From IMG/VR virus record IMGVR_UViG_3300037873_000028, positions 1 to 48,996 of that record: a DNA stretch of 48,996 nt; one strand, 5' to 3'. Position 1 is the first letter of the stretch, and each line of letters starts with the position of its first letter. The translations under genes and the position numbers were made by a program. Shown here piece by piece: positions 423 through 48,996 of the stretch. The notes under the pieces are model-generated. The model searched no databases. It saw only the letters and a program-made list of their open reading frames with translations, and was not told the origin of the DNA. The DNA is from a virus.

Positions 423-1244
423 TCAACCGGCCGATCTCTTGGCACCGCCGGTCAGCGCCGGCAGCCGGCCGACCGCCGCCGCCAACCGGGGCGAGGCGAC
501 CCGCACATAGCCGAGCGTGGTCGAGATCGACGCGTGGCCCATCAGCTCCCGCACCTCCTCCAGCCCGGCACCCGAGGCCACCAGCGCGGTGCCGTACCAG
601 TGCCTCAACATGTGCGCGGTCACGTCCACCCCCAGGGCGAGGTAGGTACGGCGGAGCTCGGCTGAGACGTGGTCGCGCCACGGGTCCCGCCCCGGCGCCA
701 CCGGACCGGCCGGCAGGCCCTCGACCGCCGCCCAGATCAGCGGGTGGGTCGGCACCCGGCGGGTTTTGTCGCCCTTGCCGTGTAACGTCACCCGTTCGGG
801 CAAGATGTGCTCACGCCGGAGCCGGGTGATCTCGATGCACCGGGCGCCGGCGTACGCGGCCAGCAGCGACCACAGCCGGTACGGCTCGGCCGCTCGAGCG
901 AGGATCGCCGCGAGCTCGGCGTCCGAGCAGGGGTTGGGCAGGCCTGGGCGGACCCGGGGGCGGGGGACCAGCGCCCCCTCGTCCCGGCTGATGTGCCCGA
1001 CGGCGACCGCCCAGGAGATGCAGCCGGTCAACGCGGCGTGGTAGGTGCGGCGGGTGGCCGCGCTGGCGTACCGGCCGAGCCAGGCGGTGATCTCGGCGGC
1101 GGTGGCGGTGGGCACCCCGGCGGGTAGCTCCCGGTGCGCGGCGCGCAGGGCGGTGCCGTAGGTGCGGATGGTCTTCGGGGAGCGGCCGATGGTGGCGAGG
1201 TGGGCGAGGTAGTCCTCGAGGATGTCGGCGTCGGGGGTGCTCAT
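423..1244 (-). CDS. int: Tyrosine recombinase / phage integrase (XerC/D-sized, 273 aa)
   Basis: ARCIEITRLRREHI plus HMLRHWYGTALVASGAGLEEVRELMGHASISTTLGYVRV give the R...HxxR...Y catalytic pattern. The N-terminal SAM-like core-binding region is short and there is no long arm-binding domain. Confidence 0.9.
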   Translation of the reverse strand: MSTPDADILEDYLAHLATIGRSPKTIRTYGTALRAAHRELPAGVPTATAAEITAWLGRYASAATRRTYHAALTGCISWAVAVGHISRDEGALVPRPRVRPGLPNPCSDAELAAILARAAEPYRLWSLLAAYAGARCIEITRLRREHILPERVTLHGKGDKTRRVPTHPLIWAAVEGLPAGPVAPGRDPWRDHVSAELRRTYLALGVDVTAHMLRHWYGTALVASGAGLEEVRELMGHASISTTLGYVRVASPRLAAAVGRLPALTGGAKRSAG

Positions 1245-1250
1245 GTCCGG

Positions 1251-1709
1251 TTATCGGGTGGTGGCGCCGTGTGGTGCCGGGGCTGGCGGGTGGGAGAGTC
1301 GGGCCGGGCGGCTGATGCCGGAGGCCGGTTGCGCGGGTACGCGGCTCATGCTTCTGGGTGAGCCGGCCGGTCGGCTGGTCGGGCGAATCGTGTGGCCGTT
1401 CGGCTGGTCGGGGGTGGCCTGCCCGGTGGCGATGGGATAGCTTGCCGGTAACCTGCGGCGGCGCGTCAGGACCCGCTCGGCCGGCTGGTCAGCCAGCGGC
1501 AACAGCTCGGCGACCTCGACCTCTAGGGCGTTGGCGATGCGCTCCAGGTCGTTGAGTCCGATCTCCTGGTGTCCGGTCAGTCGCTGGCTGACCCACGGTT
1601 GCGAGACTCCGAGCCGTCGAGCCAGCTCGCGGCCGGTGACGCGCTTGCGTCCCAGCATGGCGCGGATCTCCTCGGCGACTTGTTCGCTCAGCGTGTCGCT
1701 GCTATCCAT
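1251..1709 (-). CDS. CI-like HTH (XRE family) repressor with a long low-complexity C-terminal tail
   Basis: Trimmed from ORF 1251..1982 to the ATG at 1709. HTH is TGRELARRLGVSQPWVSQRLTG, followed by about 85 aa rich in Pro/Ser/Arg. The stop lies 6 nt upstream of the int start codon. Divergent from the Cro-like gene. Confidence 0.8.
   Translation of the reverse strand: MDSSDTLSEQVAEEIRAMLGRKRVTGRELARRLGVSQPWVSQRLTGHQEIGLNDLERIANALEVEVAELLPLADQPAERVLTRRRRLPASYPIATGQATPDQPNGHTIRPTSRPAGSPRSMSRVPAQPASGISRPARLSHPPAPAPHGATTR
1365..1412. repeat. Two 19-bp direct repeats (GGCCG[G/T]TCGGCTGGTCGGG) offset by 29 bp inside the repressor 3' tail
   Basis: 1365-1383 and 1394-1412 differ at one base. The 29-bp offset is not a multiple of 3, so the two copies are read in different frames. 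A weaker third copy (core CGGCTGGTC) is at 1482-1490. Confidence 0.7.
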
Positions 1710-1850: not shown

Positions 1851-2102
1851 ATGGCTCACATCGACAGCTCGACGGCCCGGGTAGTAGGGGTCCAGACCGA
1901 GATCGCGGCGGTGATGTACGAGCTGCGCGTCTCGCAGCGCGAGCTGGCTCGACGGCTTGAGGTGTCTCAGCCGTGGGTGCAAGCGCGGCTGGCCGGAGAG
2001 ACCACCATCACGGTGGCCGACGTGCAGCGGATCGCCGCCGCGCTCGACGTGCCGGTGACCAGGTTCCTGCCCACGGCCGAGCAGGCGGGAGGTGTGCGAT
2101 GA
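1851..2102 (+). CDS. Cro-like HTH DNA-binding protein (83 aa)
   Basis: Trimmed from ORF 1569..2102 to the ATG at 1851. HTH is SQRELARRLEVSQPWVQARLAG, near-paralogous to the repressor HTH. Divergent arrangement. Confidence 0.75.
   Translation: MAHIDSSTARVVGVQTEIAAVMYELRVSQRELARRLEVSQPWVQARLAGETTITVADVQRIAAALDVPVTRFLPTAEQAGGVR
2077..2094 (+). repeat. Gene-junction repeat copy 1 (CCGAGCAGGCGGGAGGTG)
   Basis: 18-mer at the 3' end of the cro-like gene, immediately upstream of the next start. It differs at one base from the identical copies at 2721-2738 and 2935-2952. Confidence 0.8.
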
Positions 2103-2958: not shown

Positions 2959-3393
2959 ATGCATGACCCGCTGATGATGCTGTTCCGGGTCAAGCTGATC
3001 CGGCTGGACATCTGGCACCGGGAGCCCGGCGGCCACGACGCCGGCGAGGTGTGCGGACCGCCACCGAACAGCGGCCCGTCCGCCTGGTGGTGGTATCTGC
3101 GCCACGTCCGGCACTGGCATCCACGCTGGTGGCCGGTCTTCCGGGTGCGCAAGTGGATCACCGACCGGTGCGACCACTGCGGCCGGCGGTTCCGCTGGCG
3201 CGAAGCCCGATTCAGCTACATCAGCACGGACAAGGTGTGGCACGACCCGTGCATGGCGCTGCGGCACGTCCGAAGCCAGCTCGACGACATCACCCGCTAC
3301 GTGATGGCCACGGCCGACGACACCACCCGCTGGCGGGTCGAGTACCGGCTGAAGCATCTGGACAAGGCCGCCGCCGAGCAGGTGACCCGGTGA
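2959..3393 (+). CDS. Hypothetical Trp/Arg-rich protein
   Basis: ATG at 2959, with an alternative GTG at 2950. Contains WWWYLRHVRHWHPRWWP and a CDHCGRRF motif. GC3 is high. Confidence 0.6.
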   Translation: MHDPLMMLFRVKLIRLDIWHREPGGHDAGEVCGPPPNSGPSAWWWYLRHVRHWHPRWWPVFRVRKWITDRCDHCGRRFRWREARFSYISTDKVWHDPCMALRHVRSQLDDITRYVMATADDTTRWRVEYRLKHLDKAAAEQVTR

Positions 3394-3623
3394 ACGCCCG
3401 GCTGGCCGCGCTCGCCGACATCACCTGGGACCTGATCGTCTGGGGCCACCGGGGCGGCCCCGCCACCCGGCGCCACCCCACCTACGCCTGGCTGTGCAGC
3501 ATCCCCGCCGGCCGGCTGGCGCTGCTATCCGTCCGCTTCGGGCTGGAGTGCATCGCCGCGGGAACCCTGGCGCTGCTGGCGATCCGGCTGCGCCGCGGTG
3601 AGTACGCGGCGGTGACGTCGTGA
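3390..3623 (+). CDS. Hypothetical protein (77 aa), hydrophobic C-terminal half
   Basis: GTGA overlap at 3390-3393 in frame with ORF 3051..3623. Contains LECIAAGTLALLAI. Confidence 0.5.
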   Translation: MNARLAALADITWDLIVWGHRGGPATRRHPTYAWLCSIPAGRLALLSVRFGLECIAAGTLALLAIRLRRGEYAAVTS

Positions 3624-5190: not shown

Positions 5191-5612
5191 TCCGCCACCA
5201 CCTGGCCGTGGCCGCCACCCACCCGGCCACCGCCCACACCGCCACCGCCGTAGCGGTCGTCGCCGGCACCGCGGCCGGGCTGTGGCTGCTGGCCACCGCC
5301 GGGCCGCTGCCGCTGCTCGCCGCCCTGTGGGCGGTGGCCACCCTGCTCCCCCGACGCCACCCGGCTGCTGCGTTAGAGGCGGCCCGGGTGGTCCCCCAGG
5401 CTCCCGCGTTAGGTGGCGCGGTGGCAGCCGGGGTTGTGGCGCCCGCCCCTGGTAGGGGTGCGGGGGCGGGCGCCGCCCGGCCGGTGGCGGGCTCCCACTT
5501 CCCCCGGGGGTCTGCCACCGGCCGGCACCGCACTGGCGGCACCCAGATGCCCGCCCGCCGCGGCCACGTGGTCTACGCGACCGGCCGGGCCGCCGTGCGA
5601 GGTGCGACATGA
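5187..5612 (+). CDS. Hypothetical Ala-rich membrane protein (141 aa)
   Basis: GTGA overlap at 5187. The hydrophobic first half has high GC3. The second half has weaker codon bias, so part of 5360-5600 may be non-coding. Confidence 0.4.
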   Translation: MIRHHLAVAATHPATAHTATAVAVVAGTAAGLWLLATAGPLPLLAALWAVATLLPRRHPAAALEAARVVPQAPALGGAVAAGVVAPAPGRGAGAGAARPVAGSHFPRGSATGRHRTGGTQMPARRGHVVYATGRAAVRGAT

Positions 5613-5620
5613 GCCGGCTC
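5581..5620 (+). repeat. Start-associated 40-bp repeat, copy A (spans the ASCH gene start)
   Basis: ccggccgggccgccgtgcgaggtgcgacatgagccggctc matches 5991-6030 at 35 of 40 positions by hand alignment. Both copies include the SD-like GAGGTG and the first three codons, ATG AGC CG(G/C), encoding Met-Ser-Arg. Confidence 0.8.
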
Positions 5621-6022
5621 ATGTCCGTCACGCTCACCGAGCAAGCCGTGGTCGAGCGGCGTAAGACCGTCACCCGCCGCATCGGTTGGCGATTCCTCAA
5701 GACTGGTGACCGGCTGACGCTGTGCCGCAAGGTGCAAGGCCGCCGCCCGGGTGAGCCGCTGGTGCGGCTGGCCGAGGTGGAGGTGACCTCGGTCCGCCGA
5801 GAACCACTGAGCAGGATTGCGCCCGCCGACGTGGCGCGCGAAGGGTTCGAGCCGTGGCGACGCCGGCAGTTCATCGAGTTCTTCTGCGAGTCGATGCGCT
5901 GCGAGCCGGCCACCGAGGTGACCCGGATCGAGTGGCGCTACCTGGACCCGCCGCTCGCCGACCTGACTCCCGCCCGGGACACAGCCCAGCCCGGGCGGGC
6001 CGCCATGCGAGGTGCGGCATGA
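5609..6022 (+). CDS. ASCH-domain protein (137 aa)
   Basis: ERRKTVTRRIGWRFLKTGDRLTL ... EVEVTSV ... ADVAREGF matches the recalled ASCH/YqfB-like pattern (G-K-T-x-T-x-R ... K-x-GD ... E-G-F). Confidence 0.65.
   Translation: MSRLMSVTLTEQAVVERRKTVTRRIGWRFLKTGDRLTLCRKVQGRRPGEPLVRLAEVEVTSVRREPLSRIAPADVAREGFEPWRRRQFIEFFCESMRCEPATEVTRIEWRYLDPPLADLTPARDTAQPGRAAMRGAA
5961..5999 (+). repeat. 39-bp hairpin-containing repeat, copy 1 (3' end of the ASCH gene)
   Basis: acctgactcccgcccgggacacagcccagcccgggcggg is identical to 6665-6703. It contains a perfect 10-bp stem, CCCGCCCGGG (5969-5978) / CCCGGGCGGG (5990-5999). Confidence 0.9.
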
Positions 6023-6030
6023 GCCGCCTT
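5991..6030 (+). repeat. Start-associated 40-bp repeat, copy B (spans the methyltransferase start)
   Basis: See 5581..5620. Confidence 0.8.
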
Positions 6031-6819
6031 CGTCTCCTGGATCTGTTTTGTGGCGGGGGAGGCAGCGCGCGCGGATACCAGCTCGCCGGGTTCCACGTCA
6101 CCGGCGTCGATGTCCGGCCGATGCCCCGGTACGCCGGGGACGAGTTCGTGCTCGGGGACGCGCTGGAGTACCTGGCCGCCCACGGCCGGGAGTTCGACGC
6201 CGTACACGCGTCGCCGCCCTGCCAGGACCACAGCCCTCTACGGAGCCGGGCCGGCGAGCATGGCACCGGCTGGCTGCTCGACGCCACCTTGGAGCTCCTG
6301 GCCGAGCAACCTGCCGTGTGGGTTGTTGAGAACGTGGGCGCCGCCCACAACCGCGCCGACATCCTGCTGTGCGGGGAGATGTTCGGACTACGCACTGTGC
6401 GCCATCGCCGGTTCACCATCGACCCTCGCATGCCGGCCCTGCTCGCCCAGCCAGCTCACCGTAGACACCGCCGGCCTACGAGCACCAAGAACCGGATCAG
6501 CGCGCTGGCCGAGGGGCACAACCTGTCAGTGACCGGCAACATCGGCGTTCACGCCGGCGTCCCCTGTATGGGCATCGACTGGATGACCGGTGACGAGCTC
6601 AGCCAGGCGATTCCGCCGGCCTACACCCAGTTCATCGGCGAGCAGCTGCTCGCCCATCTCACCAACCTGACTCCCGCCCGGGACACAGCCCAGCCCGGGC
6701 GGGTCGGTTCTCTGGTGGCGGCCGCTGCCGTAGCCGCTGACGGCCGCCACCAGACACACACCAGCCCCGCCCGGTCAGGGGCGGGGCCAGCGGACCACCA
6801 CCGAAAGGAGCTGCCATGA
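6019..6819 (+). CDS. DNA (cytosine-5) methyltransferase, short Dcm-like (266 aa)
   Basis: LDLFCGGGGSARGY (motif I, FxGxG), ASPPCQDHS (motif IV, PCQ), VVENV (motif VI). Trimmed to the ATG at 6019. The last ~38 aa follow the repeat at 6665-6703 and look like read-through. Confidence 0.9.
   Translation: MSRLRLLDLFCGGGGSARGYQLAGFHVTGVDVRPMPRYAGDEFVLGDALEYLAAHGREFDAVHASPPCQDHSPLRSRAGEHGTGWLLDATLELLAEQPAVWVVENVGAAHNRADILLCGEMFGLRTVRHRRFTIDPRMPALLAQPAHRRHRRPTSTKNRISALAEGHNLSVTGNIGVHAGVPCMGIDWMTGDELSQAIPPAYTQFIGEQLLAHLTNLTPARDTAQPGRVGSLVAAAAVAADGRHQTHTSPARSGAGPADHHRKELP
6665..6703 (+). repeat. 39-bp hairpin-containing repeat, copy 2 (inside the 3' part of the methyltransferase ORF)
   Basis: Identical to 5961-5999. 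Both copies encode DLTPARDTAQPGR. Confidence 0.9.
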
Positions 6820-8786: not shown

Positions 8787-9166
8787 TCCGTAGCCTGCTC
8801 GTCCTGCTCATCGCCACCACCCTCGGCAGCCTGTGGTGGTGGTCCGGTGTGGTCGGCCGCCGCCGGCTCGACCTCGAAGACGCCGCGCTGCTCGCCCGCA
8901 CCCAGGCCATGCCCACCGGCGGCCGGGAAGGCCGCTGCCCACGCTGCGGCGGTTCACACTGCCGCCCGTGGCGGGAAACCGGCGCCGACTGCGGCGGGCA
9001 GCACGCCCCATCACTCGTCCACACCATGTGGACACCTCAGCGGGGCGTGCACGAGCCGGTGGCGGTGCTGCGGCGCATCGTCCCCGGCGGGTGGCGCCCA
9101 CCCCGGCCCCTGTGGTCCACCCTGGCCGAGCGGGTCGGCGGCTTCCCAGTGGGGGTGCTGCCATGA
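8783..9166 (+). CDS. Membrane-anchored Cys-containing protein (127 aa)
   Basis: ATGA overlap. N-terminal MIRSLLVLLIATTLGSLWWW, then CPRCGGSHC. Confidence 0.55.
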   Translation: MIRSLLVLLIATTLGSLWWWSGVVGRRRLDLEDAALLARTQAMPTGGREGRCPRCGGSHCRPWRETGADCGGQHAPSLVHTMWTPQRGVHEPVAVLRRIVPGGWRPPRPLWSTLAERVGGFPVGVLP

Positions 9167-9702
9167 GGATCGTCCGCCGCGACAACGGGCGCATGGCAGA
9201 AGTGCAGCCAGTGAAGCCAGTCCCAATCTCGCAAGGTCTTGTTGCACTCGTGGACGAAGCCGACCTCCACCTAGTCAGTCCGTTCAACTGGTCCGCTCAA
9301 CGCTCGGGCAATACCTGGTATGCCTATCGACGCCACGGAGCCAGCAAGCAGTTTATGCATCAGATCATCGGTGGTTTTCCTCGCACCGACCATATCAACG
9401 GCAATGGCCTGGACAACCGGAAGATCAACCTGCGCCCCGCGACCCACGTCCAGAACGGCCAGAACATGCGGAAGTCCCGAGGCACCTCACGCTACAAGGG
9501 AGTAAGCCGACAGGCGGACCGCCAACTTTGGAAGGCTGAGATCAAGTCGGGCGGGCGGCGCCTGTTCCTGGGTCGATTCAAAGAGGAGGAGCTGGCCGCG
9601 CGAGCGTATGACGCTACCGCCAGGAGCTTGTTCGGGGAGTTCGCTGCACTGAACTTCCCGTGCGATGGAGAGCGCTCGGCGCATCGGGGGGCTGCCGCGT
9701 GA
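9163..9702 (+). CDS. HNH endonuclease with AP2 DNA-binding domain (paralog 1 of 3)
   Basis: DHINGNGLDNRKINLRPATHVQNGQN (HNH) plus SRYKGV...W.A.I...LGRF..EE.AARAYD..A...FGEFAALNFP (AP2). GC is visibly lower than in the neighbouring genes. Confidence 0.85.
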   Translation: MRIVRRDNGRMAEVQPVKPVPISQGLVALVDEADLHLVSPFNWSAQRSGNTWYAYRRHGASKQFMHQIIGGFPRTDHINGNGLDNRKINLRPATHVQNGQNMRKSRGTSRYKGVSRQADRQLWKAEIKSGGRRLFLGRFKEEELAARAYDATARSLFGEFAALNFPCDGERSAHRGAAA

Positions 9703-13585: not shown

Positions 13586-14886
13586 ACGAGACACCGGACA
13601 TCCAGTATGGGCGCCTGTTGGAAGCTGCCGAGATCAGCGGCTACGCCGCGCACCGTGCGTTCGAGGTCACGCGAGGGCTGCTGGAATCCGGCGACTGGCA
13701 GAGGGTGGGGCCGGGCTTCAACGACGTGAGCCTGTTCGTCCGTAGCGTGCCGTTCGGGACGCTGAACCCGCCGGAGGAGTTGCGGAAGTCGTACGAACGG
13801 ATTGCCGCCGAGCATGGCGCCACACAGCGCGCTATCGCAGACAGCGCCGGGGTCAGTCAGTCAACCGTCCACAGGGACCTGGCTCCTGATTCAAGTGAAT
13901 CGGGGCCGGGAGTAGCCGCTGCCACTGACCTGCAAGAACCGGAGCAAGCATCGGATGTAGGTGATTCATTTGAATCACAGCCACTCCCCGACCTGCCCGC
14001 TGGGCAGGACGTAGCTGACGAGATTCTGGCAGGGATAGACCAGCAGACCGCAGCGCCAGAACCAGATCATGCGCCGGAGATCGCCCCCAAGCGCGAATCG
14101 GTCATGCTGACCTTGTACGACCACACCGGCAAGGGGCATCCGTACCCAAAGCCCCAGAGCAAGCCCACCTTCAACGAGACCACCGGCGAAGGCATCTCCT
14201 GGGCCGCCTGGTCCTGGAACCCGGTCACCGGCTGCCTCCACGGCTGCGACTACTGCTACGCCCGCGCCATCATCCACCGATACCCCGAACCCAACCCGGC
14301 CGGGTTCACGCCGCTGTTCCATGATGAGCGGCTGAGCGCGCCCGGCAACACCACTATCCCCGAACGGCACCGCGATGATCCCGCCTACAGCCGGGTGTTC
14401 GTCTGCTCGATGGCAGATCTCTACGGCCGGTGGGTGCCGTTGAAGTGGATCGAGGATGTACACAAGGCGATGACCGACAACCCGCAATGGGAATACCTGC
14501 TGCTGACCAAGTTCCCGGACCGGTACGTCGAGCTGGAGCTACCGGCCACCGCCTGGGTAGGCACCTCGGTCGATGAGCAGAAGCGGGTGCGGATCGCCGA
14601 GCGCGCCTTCCGCCGCATCGAGGGCGTCAAGGTCAAGTGGCTGTCGCTCGAACCATTGAGGGAGCCTCTGGAGTTCACCGACCTGTCCATGTTCGACTGG
14701 GTTGTCATCGGCGCCCAGACGGCTACGGTCCAGCCCACCGGCCCGGTGCCCGCCTTCGGCCCGCCGTCCAAGTGGGTCGACCAGATCAAACGGCTCGCTG
14801 ATGCGGCCGGCATCCCGGTGCACGAGAAACCCAACCTGTACAACGGGAATCCCGGGGCGCAGCCGCGAAACGAGTACCCGGCATGA
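13582..14886 (+). CDS. HTH domain fused to a Gp37/Gp68 (PF07505/DUF5131) radical-SAM-like domain (434 aa)
   Basis: N-terminal HTH is ATQRAIADSAGVSQSTVHRDL. An acidic linker of about 100 aa follows. The C-terminal WNPVTGCLHGCDYCYA carries a CxxxCxxC motif typical of DUF5131. Confidence 0.75.
   Translation: MNETPDIQYGRLLEAAEISGYAAHRAFEVTRGLLESGDWQRVGPGFNDVSLFVRSVPFGTLNPPEELRKSYERIAAEHGATQRAIADSAGVSQSTVHRDLAPDSSESGPGVAAATDLQEPEQASDVGDSFESQPLPDLPAGQDVADEILAGIDQQTAAPEPDHAPEIAPKRESVMLTLYDHTGKGHPYPKPQSKPTFNETTGEGISWAAWSWNPVTGCLHGCDYCYARAIIHRYPEPNPAGFTPLFHDERLSAPGNTTIPERHRDDPAYSRVFVCSMADLYGRWVPLKWIEDVHKAMTDNPQWEYLLLTKFPDRYVELELPATAWVGTSVDEQKRVRIAERAFRRIEGVKVKWLSLEPLREPLEFTDLSMFDWVVIGAQTATVQPTGPVPAFGPPSKWVDQIKRLADAAGIPVHEKPNLYNGNPGAQPRNEYPA
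13888..13978. repeat. Two AT-rich palindromes GATTCAnnTGAATC, 75 bp apart, inside the linker of CDS 13582..14886
   Basis: 13888-13901 is gattcaagtgaatc. 13961-13978 is gtgattcatttgaatcac, with perfect 8-bp arms. I found no other copy in the window by eye. Confidence 0.8.
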
Positions 14887-14956
14887 CCCGCCACCGACCT
14901 ATCCGGAAGCCCGCACCCGCCCAGGCGGAAAGCGCACCGGAGCAAGGAGCCGCCTG

Positions 14957-15643
14957 ATGCCCTGGGTCCGGTTCGATGACCAGTACCCGATCCACCGCAA
15001 GGTGAAGCCCTTGTCGGACTCCGAATATCGGTGGCACAACGAGGCGATCTTCTGGTGTGCACGAAACCTCACAGACGGATACGTGCCCGCTGAGGACGTG
15101 GCGGAAGTGTCAGTGGTACGGCGGCCGCACAAGGTCATCCCTTGCCTGGTGGCTCGGGGCTTACTTCACGAAACCGGACACCACTGCGCATCACCACAAT
15201 GCCCACCCGCGCCGGGTGGGGACGGTTGGATGTTGCACGACTACTGGGACTACCAGCCGTCCAAGGTCAAGGTGCTCGCCGAACGCAGGGCCAAAGCCGA
15301 ACGGCAGGCCCGCTGGCTCGCCAAGCGGAACGGGGCGGCATCCACAGGGCCAGCCGCCTTATCCACAACGGGTATGTCCGGGAATCCTCGGGATGGTCCG
15401 AAAAAAGACGCCGATGCAGACGCGTCTACAGACGCGTCTGGAGACGCGTCTGTAGACGCCCCCCCGCCCCGCCCCGCCCCGAAGGAGGCGGTGGCGGGCC
15501 ACCGCAGCACCGCCCGCCGCCAGCGCGCTGGCGGCGCGGCGGGCGGTGAGCCGAACGTCCGAACATCACCCACCTGCCCACGCTGCGGCAACCCCACCAG
15601 CAGCGCCTACCACCGCAACGTCTGCGCCAAGCAGACGCCATGA
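14957..15643 (+). CDS. Putative replication organiser / DNA-binding protein (228 aa)
   Basis: ATG at 14957 after AAGGAG. The MPWVRFDDQYPIHRKV...SEYRWHNEAIFWCARNLTDGYVP N-terminus is of a type I associate with actinophage replication/DNA-binding proteins. C-terminal CPRCG. The function is inferred, not established. Confidence 0.5.
   Translation: MPWVRFDDQYPIHRKVKPLSDSEYRWHNEAIFWCARNLTDGYVPAEDVAEVSVVRRPHKVIPCLVARGLLHETGHHCASPQCPPAPGGDGWMLHDYWDYQPSKVKVLAERRAKAERQARWLAKRNGAASTGPAALSTTGMSGNPRDGPKKDADADASTDASGDASVDAPPPRPAPKEAVAGHRSTARRQRAGGAAGGEPNVRTSPTCPRCGNPTSSAYHRNVCAKQTP
15406..15460. repeat. Five 12-bp-phased units: three perfect AGACGCGTCT palindromes flanked by two AGACGCC half-sites
   Basis: Palindromes are at 15418-27, 15430-39 and 15442-51. 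Half-sites are at 15406-12 and 15454-60. An A6 tract (15401-06) precedes them and a (CCCCG)n tract (15461-80) follows. Confidence 0.85.
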
Positions 15644-16072: not shown

Positions 16073-17421
16073 CCACCCACCAGCTGTGTGCGGCACCGGT
16101 CGGGCTGAACCCCGACCCCGACAGCCGCGAGCGTGTCCAGTGCGGCCAGCAGCGCCCGTGCCCGGTCCACGACCAGCCGTCCGCCGCGCCCGCCCAGCCG
16201 GCCCAGGACGCCCCGGCAGCCGCCGCCCCTACCCCGGGGACCACCGGCCCGGCCATCCTGGGACGGGCGCTGCTGGACCGGCACGGCACGCTGTGGCAGG
16301 ACGATGCGCCACTGAGAAACGACGTTGACATGCTGAAGGCAGGCGCCACATACGTCACTCGCTCGTATGCCGAGAACTACGGCGGCCCGTTGCGGCCAGT
16401 GCTGCTGGTGGACCCGGCCGTCGCCAGGGTGCTGGATGCGGCGGCCGCGGTGCTGCGCGAGTGGCGGCACCCAACCGGCCTGCCGCCCATCAAGGCGATG
16501 CGTGCCGAGCGCCGCGACTCCATCGCTGCGCAGTGGGAGGAACTCGCGGACCTGCTAGACGACGCCCTGGCCGCCGCCGTGGACGCGCTCGGGGAACCGG
16601 CCGGCACACCACCAGCCGACACACCGGCCGGCGACAGCATCGACCCGGCCACCATCCCAGACCAGCGGGCCAAGAACTGGGCCGACTGGCACCCGGAGAC
16701 CTACTGCCACCGCTGCGGCCGGCGCAACATCTGGTCCTGGTACGCCGACAGCGCCGTCTGGAACGAGGCTGAGGGCGACGGCGGCGGCATCCTTTGCCCG
16801 GTGTGCTTCGTGGCCGACCATGAGCGGGTCACCGGGGCGCGCACGTCCTGGCGGCTGGCCCCGGCTGGCAAGACGGACGAGGTGGGGCACCTGGTCCGTT
16901 CCGAGGCGGAGATGCGGCACCAGCTGGACACCGCCCGCGCCGAGTTGGACACGGCGAGCTCGCAGGCCACGTCCCGCTGGCAGCGCATCATCGAGCTGCG
17001 CGCCGAGCTGGCCACCGCCCGCCGGCACGCCGAGTACCGGGCGACAGACGGGCCGGGTTGGGACCGGTACACCGTGGAGGGGGTGATCGACCGGAGCTGC
17101 GCCGATGCCACCGGTGAGGAGCTGGACCAGCTACGGGCGCTGCTGGACGACGTGGACCAGTACGAGGGATGGGCCGAGCGGCTGGCCGAGCACATCCCGG
17201 AGGAGGAGGGCGACGACGTGGCCACGCCGGGGCTGGTCGAGCAGTGGATGGCCCGGCAGCCCGCGCTGCGGGAGGAGATCCGCCGGGACGCCGCCGCCGA
17301 CGCGCTGGTCTTCGCCGCTGGTCTGGCGCACCGCTGGAGCCAGACTGAGTTGGCCGGGGACCTGCGCCACATAGCCGCCGAGATCCGCGCCGGCACTCGC
17401 AGTATTGGAGATGTCAGGTGA
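16069..17421 (+). CDS. Hypothetical 450-aa protein with an internal zinc-ribbon-like motif and coiled-coil-like C-terminal half
   Basis: YCHRCGRRN ... LCPVCF. GC3 is high throughout. I recognise no enzymatic motif. Confidence 0.7.
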   Translation: MTTHQLCAAPVGLNPDPDSRERVQCGQQRPCPVHDQPSAAPAQPAQDAPAAAAPTPGTTGPAILGRALLDRHGTLWQDDAPLRNDVDMLKAGATYVTRSYAENYGGPLRPVLLVDPAVARVLDAAAAVLREWRHPTGLPPIKAMRAERRDSIAAQWEELADLLDDALAAAVDALGEPAGTPPADTPAGDSIDPATIPDQRAKNWADWHPETYCHRCGRRNIWSWYADSAVWNEAEGDGGGILCPVCFVADHERVTGARTSWRLAPAGKTDEVGHLVRSEAEMRHQLDTARAELDTASSQATSRWQRIIELRAELATARRHAEYRATDGPGWDRYTVEGVIDRSCADATGEELDQLRALLDDVDQYEGWAERLAEHIPEEEGDDVATPGLVEQWMARQPALREEIRRDAAADALVFAAGLAHRWSQTELAGDLRHIAAEIRAGTRSIGDVR

Positions 17422-18167
17422 CGGTCGTGCGAATCCCACTGCATCATGGTCTGTTTCTGCTAGTCGATGATGCCGATGCGGAAGCTGTCTCCCAGTTCAG
17501 GTGGCGTCCTGCGGGGAAGCGGGAAACCTATTACGCACGACGACGCTTCCTAGAACCTGATGGGGATTCCGTGCGAGAGCGAGGCCAGTTCGTGCACACC
17601 TTCTTGACCGGTTGGCCACGGGTTGACCACATCAACGGCAACGGCTTGGACAACCGGCGCTGCAACTTGCGACCTGCTACTGAGTCACAGAACCAAGCCA
17701 ATCGCCAAAAAACCAAGGGAACATCTCGCTACAAGGGCGTTGTTTGGGACACGTCGAGGCTTAGGTGGCTAGCGAGGATTTACCCGCAGGGGAAGCAGAT
17801 CAAGCTTGGCCGCTTCATGTCGGAGGAGGATGCAGCACTCGCCTACGACGATGCAGCGCGCCGCTACTTCGGTGACTACGCTGCCCTGAACTTTCCACGT
17901 CCGGGCGAGCAGTCGGCCCTTGGCAGGGTGGCACCGGTAGCCAGGGGGCTTCCCCTGGTCGGTCGTGGGGTCAGGGGTCACCGCCTTGTACGCGTCACCG
18001 CCAAGGAATATCAATGCTCCTGCGGATGCCCACTTGTCTTCGCCCCGCACGGAAAGAGTCAGACTCGCGCTAGGGAAGCAATGAAGGCACACTGCCAAGA
18101 CCTCCTCAAGGTCCGTCCCGTCCCCGGCAGCCCGGCCCCGGCCAGCGGAGAGGACGCGGACCAGTGA
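17418..18167 (+). CDS. HNH endonuclease with AP2 domain (paralog 2 of 3) plus a C-terminal extension
   Basis: DHINGNGLDNRRCNLRPATESQNQAN plus SRYKGV...LGRF..EEDAALAYDDAARRYFGDYAALNFP. GTGA overlap. GC is lower than in the flanks. Confidence 0.85.
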   Translation: MTVVRIPLHHGLFLLVDDADAEAVSQFRWRPAGKRETYYARRRFLEPDGDSVRERGQFVHTFLTGWPRVDHINGNGLDNRRCNLRPATESQNQANRQKTKGTSRYKGVVWDTSRLRWLARIYPQGKQIKLGRFMSEEDAALAYDDAARRYFGDYAALNFPRPGEQSALGRVAPVARGLPLVGRGVRGHRLVRVTAKEYQCSCGCPLVFAPHGKSQTRAREAMKAHCQDLLKVRPVPGSPAPASGEDADQ

Positions 18168-45328: not shown

Positions 45329-45544
45329 ATGCGTAAGTTGATCATCATCGCGGCGCTGGTCGCCGCCGGCGTCGGCGCCGCGGCCAGCCCGGCCCAGGCC
45401 GACCCGATCACCTGCCCACCCGGGCAGGAGGCCACGCTCAACCCCAGCCAGGGCGGTTGGGTGTGCGTGAACCAGGGCGGTCACACCAACGAGTCGGAAG
45501 ACCCGAAGAACCCGAACAAGGACAAGGGCGACTTCCGGCCCTGA
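45329..45544 (+). CDS. Small secreted protein with a signal peptide (71 aa)
   Basis: MRKLIIIAALVAAGVGAAASPAQA, then CPPGQ...WVC. ATG after AGAGGAGAG. Confidence 0.6.
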   Translation: MRKLIIIAALVAAGVGAAASPAQADPITCPPGQEATLNPSQGGWVCVNQGGHTNESEDPKNPNKDKGDFRP

Positions 45545-45556
45545 ACCGAAGAACAT

Positions 45557-45594
45557 AAGGAGCCCTCCCGGGTGGTTGCCCGGGAGGGCTCCTT
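45557..45594. terminator. Bidirectional terminator hairpin between convergent genes
   Basis: Perfect 16-bp stem, AAGGAGCCCTCCCGGG (45557-72) / CCCGGGAGGGCTCCTT (45579-94), with a 6-nt loop and TT after the stem. Confidence 0.75.
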
Positions 45595-45609: not shown

Positions 45610-46164
45610 TCAGAGTTCCGACACGTCAGCGATCTCCACACCCAGCTCCACATCGGAAGCTGTGCTGATCGACTCCAGCTCCTCCCTGGAGTACTGGTCG
45701 CCGGTCACGGTCAGCGTGTTGATGTACGAGCTCTCGCCGCCGCTGATCTCGTAGGTCACCTCGTATGTGATCGCCGGGTCGAGGTCCCCGCCGGTGTGGA
45801 CGTAGGCCAGCTCGATCCTGAAGTCGATCAGGCAGCCGGCCGAGCCGAAGCACTCCTTCGACAGGGTCTTCACCGTCAGCTCGAAGTCCTCGGCGTCCGG
45901 CTCGTGGTACAGCGCGTCGGGTTCGTCGGCCGGCTCACCGTCGCCGATCGGCTCGGCAGTCTCCGGCCGGATGTCGAGGCCGGGATCATCCGTGTCGACA
46001 CCGGCGATGCCGACCACGGCGAGGATCCCGCCGCCGATGCAGCACAGGGCGACCAGGGTGATGCTGATCGCGATCAGCCAGGTGGGGGCGGTGAGCTTGT
46101 GCTTGGGCGCCTTGACCGGCGGCTGGCTGTGGGCCGGCTGCGGGTCGGGCTGCTGGTAGGTCAT
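45610..46164 (-). CDS. Accessory operon gene 5: membrane-anchored protein with an acidic extracytoplasmic domain (184 aa)
   Basis: Trimmed to the ATG at 46164. Pro/Gln-rich N-terminus, TM segment WLIAISITLVALCCIGGGILAVVGIAGV, and a C-terminal beta-rich domain with CFGSAGC. Confidence 0.65.
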   Translation of the reverse strand: MTYQQPDPQPAHSQPPVKAPKHKLTAPTWLIAISITLVALCCIGGGILAVVGIAGVDTDDPGLDIRPETAEPIGDGEPADEPDALYHEPDAEDFELTVKTLSKECFGSAGCLIDFRIELAYVHTGGDLDPAITYEVTYEISGGESSYINTLTVTGDQYSREELESISTASDVELGVEIADVSEL

Positions 46165-46249
46165 GGCTATTCTGCTCTCTGGTCGGGTGGCGGGTCTGTT
46201 CCGCCACTCGGCCCCCGCCGCGTGATGAGGCGGTTGGGGCCGGGCGGCG

Positions 46250-46582
46250 TCAGGCGGTGCGCTCGACCGGCCGCCGCTGGACCAGCGGGCCGAGCCCCGG
46301 CGCGCGTAGCCCTCGGAAGCTCTCACTCCAGTGGATGGCCAGCTCCGGGACACAGTGACGGAGTCCCGGCCCGGCCTCGACGACCAGGTACAGCCGGCGG
46401 GGGCCGGGACGTACAGGGTGCCCACCCGCGTCGATGAGGTCCGCCCGGCCGCGGCGTCGGGGTAGCCGGATGTCGACGACCAGCCGGCGCGAGTGCCAGA
46501 ACAGCGTCTGTATGCCCTCTCGCACGATGAGGACACTCTGCCATCCGGCGTAGCGCCCGGTTGCGGGCCGTAGTCGCTTCAT
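46250..46582 (-). CDS. Accessory operon gene 4: basic hypothetical protein (110 aa)
   Basis: ATG at 46582 with AAGGAG 7 nt upstream on the minus strand. Confidence 0.55.
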   Translation of the reverse strand: MKRLRPATGRYAGWQSVLIVREGIQTLFWHSRRLVVDIRLPRRRGRADLIDAGGHPVRPGPRRLYLVVEAGPGLRHCVPELAIHWSESFRGLRAPGLGPLVQRRPVERTA

Positions 46583-46604
46583 GATCGTCTCCTTCGATTC
46601 GGCG

Positions 46605-46862
46605 TCAGGGCCACAGCTCGGTGGGTCCCTCTTCCTGTTCCTGCCGGCGCCCCTCCCGGAGCATCTCGCGTACACCCTCCCAGTACGCGGCCAGCTCCCA
46701 GGCGGCGTAGTCCGGGACGCTCCAGCCCGCCCGGACCGCCGTGGTCAGCTCGTCCTGCCACAGGTGCCAGTCGGCGCAGGCACCTGTGTGCATGCTCGGC
46801 GGGTGGCGGATCGGCCGGCCCAGGTTGTCCAGGGCGCCGGACCCGCAGCGGCGCCGGTTCAC
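46605..46862 (-). CDS. Accessory operon gene 3: hypothetical protein (85 aa)
   Basis: GTG at 46862 in a GTGA overlap with the upstream gene's stop. The C-terminal half is helical and Trp-rich. Confidence 0.45.
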   Translation of the reverse strand: MNRRRCGSGALDNLGRPIRHPPSMHTGACADWHLWQDELTTAVRAGWSVPDYAAWELAAYWEGVREMLREGRRQEQEEGPTELWP

Positions 46863-47056
46863 TCTGGCCCGCCGGCCACGAACACCGAACGGCCGTCGAG
46901 CTCGAAGACGCCGGTCTCGCCGGCGGCTAGGGAGCTAGCGTGCTCGGCGGCGGTGGCCGGCCGGATCGGCTCGCCGGTGCGGTAGTCGTTCAGGGTGCCG
47001 TAGTCGGCGACGCTATGCTTCTGGATGTTGATATTGACGTTGATACGGTCGTCCAT
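46859..47056 (-). CDS. Accessory operon gene 2: hypothetical protein (65 aa)
   Basis: ATG at 47056 with AAGGAG upstream. MDDRINVNINIQKHSVADYG... Confidence 0.55.
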   Translation of the reverse strand: MDDRINVNINIQKHSVADYGTLNDYRTGEPIRPATAAEHASSLAAGETGVFELDGRSVFVAGGPE

Positions 47057-47135
47057 GGTCAACTCCTTCGGTGGTGGTGTCTGCCAGTGTGGCCGACTCG
47101 GCACGGCCCCGGGGTCCGGGGCCGCACCGGGCTGG

Positions 47136-47366
47136 TCAGTTCGTTGGTCCGATCAGCGCTGCCCATAGGGTCATCCCGCCAACCCCCTTGTCCAGGAGCC
47201 AATCGCCGGAGCGGGTGAACCCGTTGGTCTTGAGTACCTGGTCTGCGCTAGCCAGCGTGGCCGGCCGGTTGTCGACGAACACCGGGCCGGAGATGCCAGC
47301 GGGGCGGTCCGCGACAACGGTCAGGCCGTCGATGTCAATGAACACCTGATAGGTGATGCTGTCCAT
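47136..47366 (-). CDS. Accessory operon gene 1: hypothetical protein (76 aa)
   Basis: ATG at 47366 with GAAGGGA upstream. A GC hairpin (47105-47123) follows. Confidence 0.55.
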   Translation of the reverse strand: MDSITYQVFIDIDGLTVVADRPAGISGPVFVDNRPATLASADQVLKTNGFTRSGDWLLDKGVGGMTLWAALIGPTN

Positions 47367-47400
47367 TCTGAGTTCCCTTCGGGGTGCTGGCGTGTGGACC

Positions 47401-47528
47401 TGCATCCACATGGCCGGCCCGTCGGAGGGCTCTCCTCGCCGGTGGCTTCGGCATGCGCCCCACCCGCCTGAGCCTGGAGGGGCAGCCACCACCGGTTCAC
47501 GGGACGGCGAGCCGGCCATGTGGGTGCA
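47401..47528. repeat. 18-bp long-range inverted repeat enclosing 92 nt
   Basis: tgcatccacatggccggc (47401-18) against gccggccatgtgggtgca (47511-28) gives 17 Watson-Crick pairs plus one T/G position. The nested CCGGTGG (47439-45) pairs with CCACCGG (47489-95). Confidence 0.8.
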
Positions 47529-47764
47529 AGTTCTGCGTGTACCTGATGCCACGGGGGGAGCCGCCGGGGAAGCCTCTCTGGGGCGGTCCCGAGCCGTGGC
47601 TGCGGGTGCCGGTCGAGAGCCCGACCGCCTGGGTGGGCGGCCAGTGATCGTCGCAACTGGTCCGGTCGGCTCCCCTCGAAGCATCAGGTCGCTTCGTTGT
47701 CCCTGGCGGTTCTACCCGCGGTGGCCGCTTTTCTCGTTTGGCCTGGGACCCTCTCTTGTCTTAT

Positions 47765-47865
47765 GTGTATAACTGTACACCCAGAATGGGGGGGTGTCAA
47801 GCCCTCCGCTCAACCTTTCGGGTAGTTCTGTCTACCCAAAAGGTGCAGCCTTGTGGGTGTACACT
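47765..47865 (+). promoter_or_regulatory. Candidate operator palindromes and leaderless promoter for the RHH gene
   Basis: GTGTATAACTGTACAC (47765-80) and GTGTACAC (47857-64) share GTGTA/TACAC half-sites. TACACT (47860-65) fits TANNNT and lies 6 nt before the ATG at 47872. Confidence 0.4.
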
Positions 47866-47871
47866 AGAAGC

Positions 47872-48051
47872 ATGGCGGAGAGCGCGAAGTCTCGTGGTCG
47901 TCCATCTGTTGGACCGAAGCGGTATCTGCGGATGGGTGATCTATGGGATGAAGCTGTGGAGCTTGCCAGGCAGCGCCGCGAGAGCATGAGCGAACTGGTG
48001 CGTCGGGCCATCGAGCGCGAGGTCCGCCGGCTGCGACGGGGGGCGAAATGA
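47872..48051 (+). CDS. Ribbon-helix-helix (CopG/Arc-like) DNA-binding protein (59 aa)
   Basis: GRPSVGPKRYLRMGDLWDEAVELARQRRESMSELVRRAIEREV fits the RHH pattern (beta strand, helix, helix). Confidence 0.7.
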   Translation: MAESAKSRGRPSVGPKRYLRMGDLWDEAVELARQRRESMSELVRRAIEREVRRLRRGAK

Positions 48052-48608
48052 CCGTAGAGATACCAGTCACCCGCGGCTTCGTCGCGCTAGTGGACGACGG
48101 GGACGCCGTGCAGGTTATGCCGTACCGCTGGATTGCGCTGAAAGGCCCTCGGACCTGGTATGCCTGGGCTCAGGTACCTGGTCGCGTTGGATCCGGGGCG
48201 ACCCTGATGCACTCGCTCCTGACCGGCTGGCCACAGGTCGATCATGTCAACGGTGACGGTCTGGACAACCGACGCCAGAATCTGCGCCCGGCAACCCGAG
48301 AGCAAAACATGCGCAACAGTCGCAAGTACAGGGGAGGCAGCTCCCGGTACAAGGGAGTTTGCTGGAAGATACGTGATCAGCGGTGGCTGGCTCAGATCTA
48401 CGTGTCCGAGCGAGATGCTGGTGGAATGCTGGCTCGGCACAAGCTGCACCTGGGTACCTTCACTGACCAGGAGACCGCCGCCCGGGCGTACGACGCTGCG
48501 GCGCGGGAGCACTTCGGCGAGTTCGCCTGTCTGAACTTCCCTCTGCCCGGCGAGCGTGGAGCGTTGGGGCCGGGGAAGGGCGCCAACTGGTGGAAGGAGG
48601 GTAGCTGA
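48048..48608 (+). CDS. HNH endonuclease with AP2 domain (paralog 3 of 3)
   Basis: DHVNGDGLDNRRQNLRPATREQNMRN plus SRYKGV...LGTFTDQETAARAYDAAAREHFGEFACLNFP. ATGA overlap with the RHH gene. Confidence 0.85.
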   Translation: MTVEIPVTRGFVALVDDGDAVQVMPYRWIALKGPRTWYAWAQVPGRVGSGATLMHSLLTGWPQVDHVNGDGLDNRRQNLRPATREQNMRNSRKYRGGSSRYKGVCWKIRDQRWLAQIYVSERDAGGMLARHKLHLGTFTDQETAARAYDAAAREHFGEFACLNFPLPGERGALGPGKGANWWKEGS

Positions 48609-48877: not shown

Positions 48878-48996
48878 CCCCCGGCTGCTGGCCGCCACCA
48901 CCGGCCGAGCGGCCCACCCCGACCGGGTGAGAGGTATCACAGCGACGCGAACCGGTCTCACCTCGTTGACCCGGACGGCGGGAGTGCGGAGGCTCC
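48878..48996. repeat. Right copy of the exact 119-bp terminal direct repeat
   Basis: Identical to 1-119. Confidence 0.9.

Follow-up and report, generated by a model that had tools for sequence, protein, structure and literature searches.

Structured RNAs encoded by phages are far less catalogued than phage proteins. Phage leaders processed by RNase III include the early R sites of T7, the lambda N leader and sib, while the put RNAs of HK022 are cis-acting antitermination stem-loops situated downstream of the early promoters and totalling ~70 nt. In actinophages, the best-studied example is the Pleft RNA of L5 and D29, for which we know of no function. In the Cluster A mycobacteriophages L5, D29 and StarStuff, the leftward early promoter Pleft is immediately followed by an abundant, stable and processed non-coding RNA (ncRNA) of ~500 nt, and ~90% of the Pleft transcripts end before the first gene (PMC5712189).

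The locus described here belongs to a 48,996-nt stretch of viral DNA (IMG/VR record IMGVR_UViG_3300037873_000028, analysed over its full length and called the window below). [quoted passage not shown] The two have no sequence similarity (blastn, phage collection). Moreover, the whole early right arm of the Cluster A phages is transcribed from Pleft, which their main repressor represses, whereas the promoter here precedes 4-5 small accessory genes, the main immunity region lies elsewhere and expression is predicted only. The parallel with the L5/D29 Pleft RNA is one of analogy, not of homology.

The other systems compare in part. Like the RNase III-processed leaders, the locus places long, near-continuous duplexes in a predicted leader upstream of the genes that they would modulate, but its ~25-bp closing stems enclose branched interiors of 80-100 nt, and cleavage is hypothetical. 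Like HK022 put, it has two structured domains just downstream of a promoter, portable relative to the downstream genes; unlike put, it has no identified downstream terminators, and the two resemble each other neither in sequence nor in structure. Finally, large Rfam RNAs such as GOLLD and ROOL are also conserved, non-coding and borne by phages or prophages, but the present module is smaller, is known from five contigs only and has no usable Rfam match even at E up to 10.

Genome context

The ends of the window are identical (1-119 and 48878-48996), so it is a circular assembly with a true genome length of 48,877 bp. Its G+C content is ~70%. Among deposited phages, none has a large terminase more than 37% identical to its own, Streptomyces phage Kromp coming closest. 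WhiB, a DNA methyltransferase, an exonuclease, an Erf-like annealing protein and RusA are also encoded. The late genes run rightward and end at 45544; converging on them is the leftward accessory operon (45610-47369), placed at the integrase-distal end of the prophage. To the right of the gap that concerns us come, in order, a rightward ribbon-helix-helix (RHH) gene, an HNH-AP2 endonuclease gene and a gene for a small membrane protein. The landmarks are:

426-1244, minus strand: tyrosine integrase
1254-1703, minus strand, and 1902-2099, plus strand: divergent repressor/Cro-like helix-turn-helix pair
14702-15640: replication initiator gene, containing the AGACGCGTCT iterons
47139-47369, minus strand: first leftward gene, 77 aa, without known family, found only in the window
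47872-48051, plus strand: RHH gene, 59 aa

The 59-aa protein is probably an Arc-like RHH regulator, judging from its matches to PF01402 (E=0.006, below the curated cut-off) and to phrog_6506 'Arc-like repressor' (E=4e-4); a PDB sequence search with it returned nothing significant. The 77-aa protein has no relative among viral contigs. PADLOC found no matches among the leftward genes, and a role for them as a defence system was dropped.

Several further features were seen along the genome. A perfect 16-bp hairpin (45557-45594) sits between the end of the late genes and that of the leftward operon and is a candidate bidirectional terminator. The DNA methyltransferase gene is located between 49-nt direct repeats (5954-6002/6658-6706, 94% identical), and the same region (5581-6706) also holds a 39-nt repeat pair (5581-5619/5991-6029), which suggests cassette insertion or local duplication. 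There are three paralogous genes for HNH-AP2 homing-endonuclease-like proteins (8833-9699, 17418-18164 and 48048-48605), all with atypically low third-position GC.

Parts of the gap and their folding

The comparisons below make use of related contigs, numbered L001 to L014. A search with the RHH protein led to L001 (the same as contigs L003 and L004), ~90% identical to the window overall, and to only one distant relative of the protein, 62% identical, on the Logan contig L002. Pattern scans added L005, L006 and L007, and the 65-aa leftward protein led to L009-L014. Read from the sequence, the gap is a mosaic of a portable module (D1+D2), a separately conserved box (D3) and a promoter/operator block:

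47370-47397, minus strand: linker with the ribosome-binding site GAAGGGAA of the first leftward gene
47398-47531, minus strand: D1, 134-nt branched hairpin with a ~25-bp closing stem, containing an 18-bp repeat
47532-47540, minus strand: variable D1/D2 spacer, whose length in relatives differs by -9, +6 and +2 nt
47541-47689, minus strand: D2, 149-nt branched hairpin with a ~25-bp closing stem
47701-47750, minus strand: D3, small conserved structured box
47800-47795 and 47777-47772, minus strand: P_left, predicted promoter, -35 TTGACA, 17-nt spacer, -10 TACAGT
47774-47783, minus strand, and 47854-47863, plus strand: inverted pair of TGGGTGTACA, overlapping both divergent -10 boxes
47808-47849: hairpin with 18-nt arms between the two promoters, only partly conserved
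47860-47874, plus strand: rightward -10 TACACT (47860-47865), 6 nt before the RHH ATG at 47872

An earlier sequence-only reading of this DNA had described an 18-bp inverted repeat in the gap, and it is indeed there: TGCATCCACATGGCCGGC (47401-47418) pairs with GCCGGCCATGTGGGTGCA (47511-47528) through 17 Watson-Crick pairs and one T/G, enclosing 92 nt. The repeat extends to 27-nt arms (47398-47424/47505-47531) that are 85% complementary, and a second long-range repeat, missed by that reading, has 28-nt arms (47541-47568/47662-47689; 82%). The nested stems and the CGGTCG/CGACCG hairpin that it listed are present too. As for its CGAAGC/GCTTCG hairpin, it exists in the window, but among the relatives only L005 has it: in L001 and L007 an AA>TG change (47679-80) abolishes it and makes the long-range D2 stem continuous.

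The 13-nt exact core, taken alone, is within chance, simulated 49-kb windows giving exact arms of 11-16 nt, and the two long repeats rank only 3rd and 4th in the window. The folding of the entire gap region, by contrast, greatly exceeds chance. For the 502-nt gap, the fold z is -5.1 on the plus strand and -6.95 on the minus strand; for 47395-47694 it reaches -6.5 and -8.9, respectively. This segment is the most strongly folded among 32 sampled 300-nt windows of the genome, the 31 others averaging -1.0 and -0.6 with a minimum of -5.2, values that are rough given the 12 shuffles per window. The gap had been called highly structured from its letters, and these figures place it far outside the genome background.

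Across the five contigs that carry it, D1 is invariant except for 9 substituted columns. In L005 the pair G47402-C47527 is replaced by A-T, a compensatory change, and the pair 47419/47510 is seen on the minus strand as U-G, C-G and U-A. D3 has one compensatory pair as well (U-A to G-C). Its minus strand reads CCCAGGCC...GCGGCCACCGCGG...CCGCCAGGG, and its plus strand is the terminator-like hairpin and T-run of the earlier reading. It is kept in the window, L001, L005 and the distant L002, and is missing in L007. The D3 core CCGCGGTGGCCGC is over-represented in the genome (7 copies vs 1.2 expected); since all the other copies are in coding sequence, this is probably a codon effect (Ala-Ala-Val-Ala).

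Homology among D1, D2 and the different module of contig L010 (see below) is not demonstrable: pairwise z values are 1.4-3.1, and with R1, a covariance model of D1, D2 scores like any long hairpin and L010 gives no match.

In the promoter block, the TGGGTGTACA pair is a candidate operator. L005 has GTGGTACA at both equivalent places, which suggests an operator shared by the divergent promoters; L010 has the TGGGTGTACA motif with no adjoining RHH gene. A looser third copy of this operator-like motif, TTCTGCGTGTAC, was noticed in the D1-D2 spacer (47531-47542). The arrangement of TACACT and the RHH start recurs in L002, L005, L007 and L010, and a -10 box 6 nt before the ATG implies a leaderless RHH mRNA, in which case nothing in the module would be transcribed from the rightward RHH promoter.

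A predicted leader of the leftward operon

Our preferred reading, to which we give an even chance, is that the gap comprises a control region and a long 5′ leader of the leftward accessory operon (47369 to 45610). A sigma-70-like promoter (47800-47772) would fire leftward, with a start near 47765, back-to-back with the leaderless promoter of the Arc-like RHH gene, the TGGGTGTACA motif overlapping both -10 boxes. The first ~395 nt of the leftward transcript would be non-coding and would fold into D3, D2 and D1, as the full predicted leader (47768-47360) does in silico with a z of -5.4; D2 and D1, each closed by its ~25-bp stem, would precede variable accessory genes and form a self-contained RNA module that is horizontally exchanged. 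So stable a structure may attenuate or terminate most transcripts; alternatively, the long duplexes may be cleaved as RNase III-type substrates. With either action, a stable and abundant ncRNA would accumulate, and the quantity of downstream mRNA would be regulated. Transcription, its strand, any processing and the effect on downstream genes are inferred here.

The module is invariant, whereas the genes downstream of it and their ribosome-binding sites vary, so that it more likely acts on the transcript generically than by masking one start site. Two further points count for a leader: other functions have their own sites elsewhere (repressor/cro at 1254-2099, integrase at 426-1244, iterons at 15415-15550), and an unrelated ~185-nt module with a 25-bp stem occupies the same leader place in L010-L013. 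The D1+D2 module is put forward as a candidate new phage RNA, most likely a leader, in a small group of uncultured actinobacterial phages.

A bolder reading, which we hold to be unlikely, would make D2+D1 a new class of autonomous RNA cassette, exchanged among temperate actinophages, expressed from a prophage-end promoter and acting in trans; its target as a decoy might be a host RNA-binding protein, nuclease or RNA polymerase. Since L010 carries a different module, the leader would on that reading be a docking site for interchangeable RNA modules. When the module was searched for complementarity to a trans target in the rest of the genome, the longest stretch was 14 nt, which is the chance level.

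A portable module in a mosaic region

All the contigs carrying the module are metagenomic and come from three related JGI samples. D1+D2 (47394-47695) is 94-98% identical among the window, L001, L005, L006 and L007, while the flanking genes of these carriers are 77-95% identical or replaced outright, and the boundaries of the module are sharp, near 47394 and 47695. The leftward genes of L006 are unrelated to those of the window, L005 has a different RHH, and in L007 the module nearly adjoins the membrane-protein gene and the promoter-proximal leader is different. D1+D2 is missing from L002, L010 and L014: L002 keeps the promoters and D3, and L014 has a short leader only. With such mosaic neighbours around it, the aligned module shows that the gap is built of separable modules, D1+D2 being one portable unit. 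In L010-L013 (Logan runs ERR142250xx) the same leader (L010 3330-3632) holds an unrelated domain of ~185 nt, whose closing stem has 25 bp (3415-3439 paired to 3575-3599) and whose fold z is only -2.7; a purine-rich proximal leader of ~85 nt, common to L007 and L010-L013, precedes this L010-type domain. Whatever the genes, D1+D2 is on the 5′ side (minus strand) of the leftward ones in all five carriers.

On the gene side of the module, a GC-rich hairpin, GGCCCCGGGGTCCGGGGCC, was observed at 47105-47135 (47108-47127) between the 77-aa and 65-aa genes. In L007 this hairpin comes directly after the structured module and could end a discrete non-coding transcript; a further GC-rich hairpin between module and first gene is found in L007 and less clearly in L005, and in the window it sits beyond the inserted 77-aa gene. 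In the relatives, a short GAAC repeat marks the point where the module and the next intergenic hairpin are joined. The presence of the 77-aa gene looks like the simple gain or loss of one accessory gene.

How much of this requires an RNA at all? All of the structure rests on inverted repeats, and a DNA-level function would be served equally well by them. The gap could thus be a protein-bound palindrome or a recombination linker that swaps gene modules, with no RNA function, and it does lie exactly at the mosaic junctions, with varying cargo on its left and varying regulators on its right. Its loops are as invariant as its stems, which could reflect recent spread rather than selection. We nevertheless regard this explanation as improbable: the stem substitutions are nearly all transitions that keep a G-U pair on one strand, unlike what the symmetry of DNA would lead one to expect, and the four arms have in common only a short, loose motif that is not above chance elsewhere in the genome. 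Moreover, the gap is not AT-rich, has no iterons, and is surpassed by other sites of the genome as a candidate attP or origin.

Both of these roles had been raised in the sequence-only reading, and neither holds up well. The integrase (426-1244) is ~2 kb away on the circular map, across three genes, and has a low-GC spacer at its own 3′ end; the gap gave no tRNA/tmRNA signal and no arm-type repeats, its direct repeats being only short two-copy families. An attP site in the gap is disfavoured by this distance and by the missing arm-type and tRNA signals. A second origin fares no better, the gap having neither iterons nor tandem repeats (the absence of the latter was already remarked on in that reading) and an iteron cluster being present in the initiator gene at 15415-15550. 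There, AGACGCGTCT, a 10-bp palindrome, recurs in three to four copies with ~11-bp spacing (15415-15460), followed by a C/G run and a second inverted repeat (15508-15548), all of them within the 3′ part of the gene. The segment 15415-15550, with a fold z of -5.2 on the plus strand, is probably the replication origin.

Of comparably low probability is a MITE-like selfish hairpin, inserted and recently spread among co-occurring phages without any role for them. The presence/absence polymorphism (L002, L010 and L014 lack the module), the sharp boundaries, the high identity in L006 despite an otherwise unrelated flank, and ends that are weakly alike in inverted orientation (GACCTGCATCC and GACCTGATGC) are what such an element would produce. 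However, the module is single-copy in each genome, covariance model R1 and BLAST finding no other copy; no target-site duplication is seen; there is no exact match in 185,579 species genomes and none in phage or plasmid collections. Its place and orientation relative to the leftward operon are always the same, and the different L010 module at the same point resembles module exchange rather than random insertion.

The transcribed strand

For the leader reading, the direction of transcription is central. A promoter scan found a single site, on the minus strand, with 10 of 12 matches, where 0.1 would be expected in shuffled sequences. This P_left (TTGACA-17-TACAGT) recurs with the same hexamers and spacing in L001 and L002; variants are found in L005 (TTGCAC-16-TACAGT) and L010 (TTGTCA-17-TACGAT), with a close one in L007. 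The predicted first transcribed bases, CATAAG(A)CAAG, are kept along with it.

A second line of evidence comes from the stems, where any transition that turns a pair into G-U on one strand turns it into A-C on the opposite one. Six of the strand-informative transitions keep the pairing on the minus strand vs two on the plus strand, a difference that is not significant (one-sided p ~0.14). The minus consensus fold has 479 of 480 pair cells standard, and its 7 variable pairs stay paired, while 8 of 508 cells are broken in the plus consensus fold. As for covariation among the 5 sequences (~97% identical), one double-sided pair was found in D1+D2 and shuffle controls were not exceeded; the sequences are too similar for the formal analysis to yield anything. 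The module is probably read on the minus strand, towards which the evidence leans without reaching significance.

The sequence-only reading had instead proposed a structured RNA of 300-350 nt, transcribed rightward. Its size is borne out, a structured RNA of ~300 nt being the best reading of the module, but its direction is not: no plus-strand promoter or T-run is conserved, and the stem changes and the promoter favour leftward transcription. In full, that proposal would be a free-standing small RNA ending at the hairpin and T-run of 47718-47739, and it retains some appeal through the terminator-like site itself, the lower absolute fold energy of the plus strand (-187 vs -179 kcal/mol) and a few wobble pairs that fit this strand only (47405 in the 47405/47524 pair of the window, 47422/47507 and 47554/47676). 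We nonetheless judge it very unlikely. At the left edge of the module, where one would be expected, the plus strand has neither a predicted nor a conserved promoter, and the left flank differs among contigs, to the point of being unrelated in L006. The pattern of an intrinsic terminator is seen in the window and in L005, where both the GCGG-TGG-CCGC hairpin and the T-run are present, but its stem has 4-5 bp only and its T-run is not conserved, being interrupted in L001 and absent in L002, and in L007 the whole region, D3 included, is missing. The more numerous broken pairs of the plus fold also speak against it.

Coding capacity and database searches

With its 502 nt, the gap is the largest non-coding stretch of the genome, as first noted from its letters: it is the longest by a crude third-position-GC gene map, the others being ~240-280 bp. 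No conserved reading frame exists in 47370-47871, the third-position GC signal typical of genes is absent, and the gap has no Pfam or PHROG matches. The minus-frame translation of the module has no protein homologue among 5.8 billion clusters. Indels in L007 (+2) and in the window (4 nt) mean that no frame is open throughout the relatives, and the description of the gap as non-coding is upheld on all of these counts. A hidden small protein gene, such as the plus-strand ORF at 47384-47647, is thus hardly credible, for even if GC at one codon position is 0.8-0.9 over 47460-47670 and two of the three spacer indels are multiples of 3, its frame is broken in L007 (+2), the 4-nt indel alters the C-terminus, the Pro/Arg/Gly-rich translation has no Pfam or PHROG match, the ribosome-binding site is not convincing, and third-codon-position substitutions (7 of 14 in a hand count) are not clearly enriched.

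The Rfam/Infernal scan that had been suggested brought no family to its gathering threshold (Rfam 15 covariance models, whole window, 0 matches). With E raised to 10 over 47000-48200, weak matches appeared, at 13.8-23.1 bits vs gathering scores of 40-70; the sole one inside the module was Atu_Ti1 (16.8 bits, E 9.8), the other three being in or overlapping the 77-aa gene. Rfam scans of L008 and of the L010 leader gave nothing usable.

Sequence searches were equally empty outside the relatives listed above. BLAST of the region against phage and plasmid collections gave no match, nor did blastn in distant mode against 50,697 phage records, and an exact-pattern scan of the 185,579 species genomes returned 0 matches to the module, a second such scan of genome contigs being empty as well. 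Three patterns of 23-26 bases scanned in viral contigs each hit the same four contigs, and the promoter pattern hit L004 only. In metagenomes, the pattern scan brought up one unrelated contig, L008, of lower GC, whose positions 3021-3045 are an exact 25-nt match to 47542-47566 of the window, with nothing else in common; this match is treated as chance, though few such are expected.

Significance

The module is strongly structured, conserved, non-coding and without match to a known RNA family, and it is most likely transcribed leftward as a leader or ncRNA. Were it only a recombination linker or a selfish insertion, its interest would be local and would concern phage mosaicism. If it does act in trans as an RNA cassette, it would parallel the trans action suspected for the abundant and toxic Pleft RNA of mycobacteriophages. 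Being a compact element of 300 nt, it is testable for transcript fate, lysogen fitness and host factors. A second, unrelated module in a Pleft-like positional niche would make this niche a defined object of study, and relatives carrying different long-stem modules there would likewise define it.
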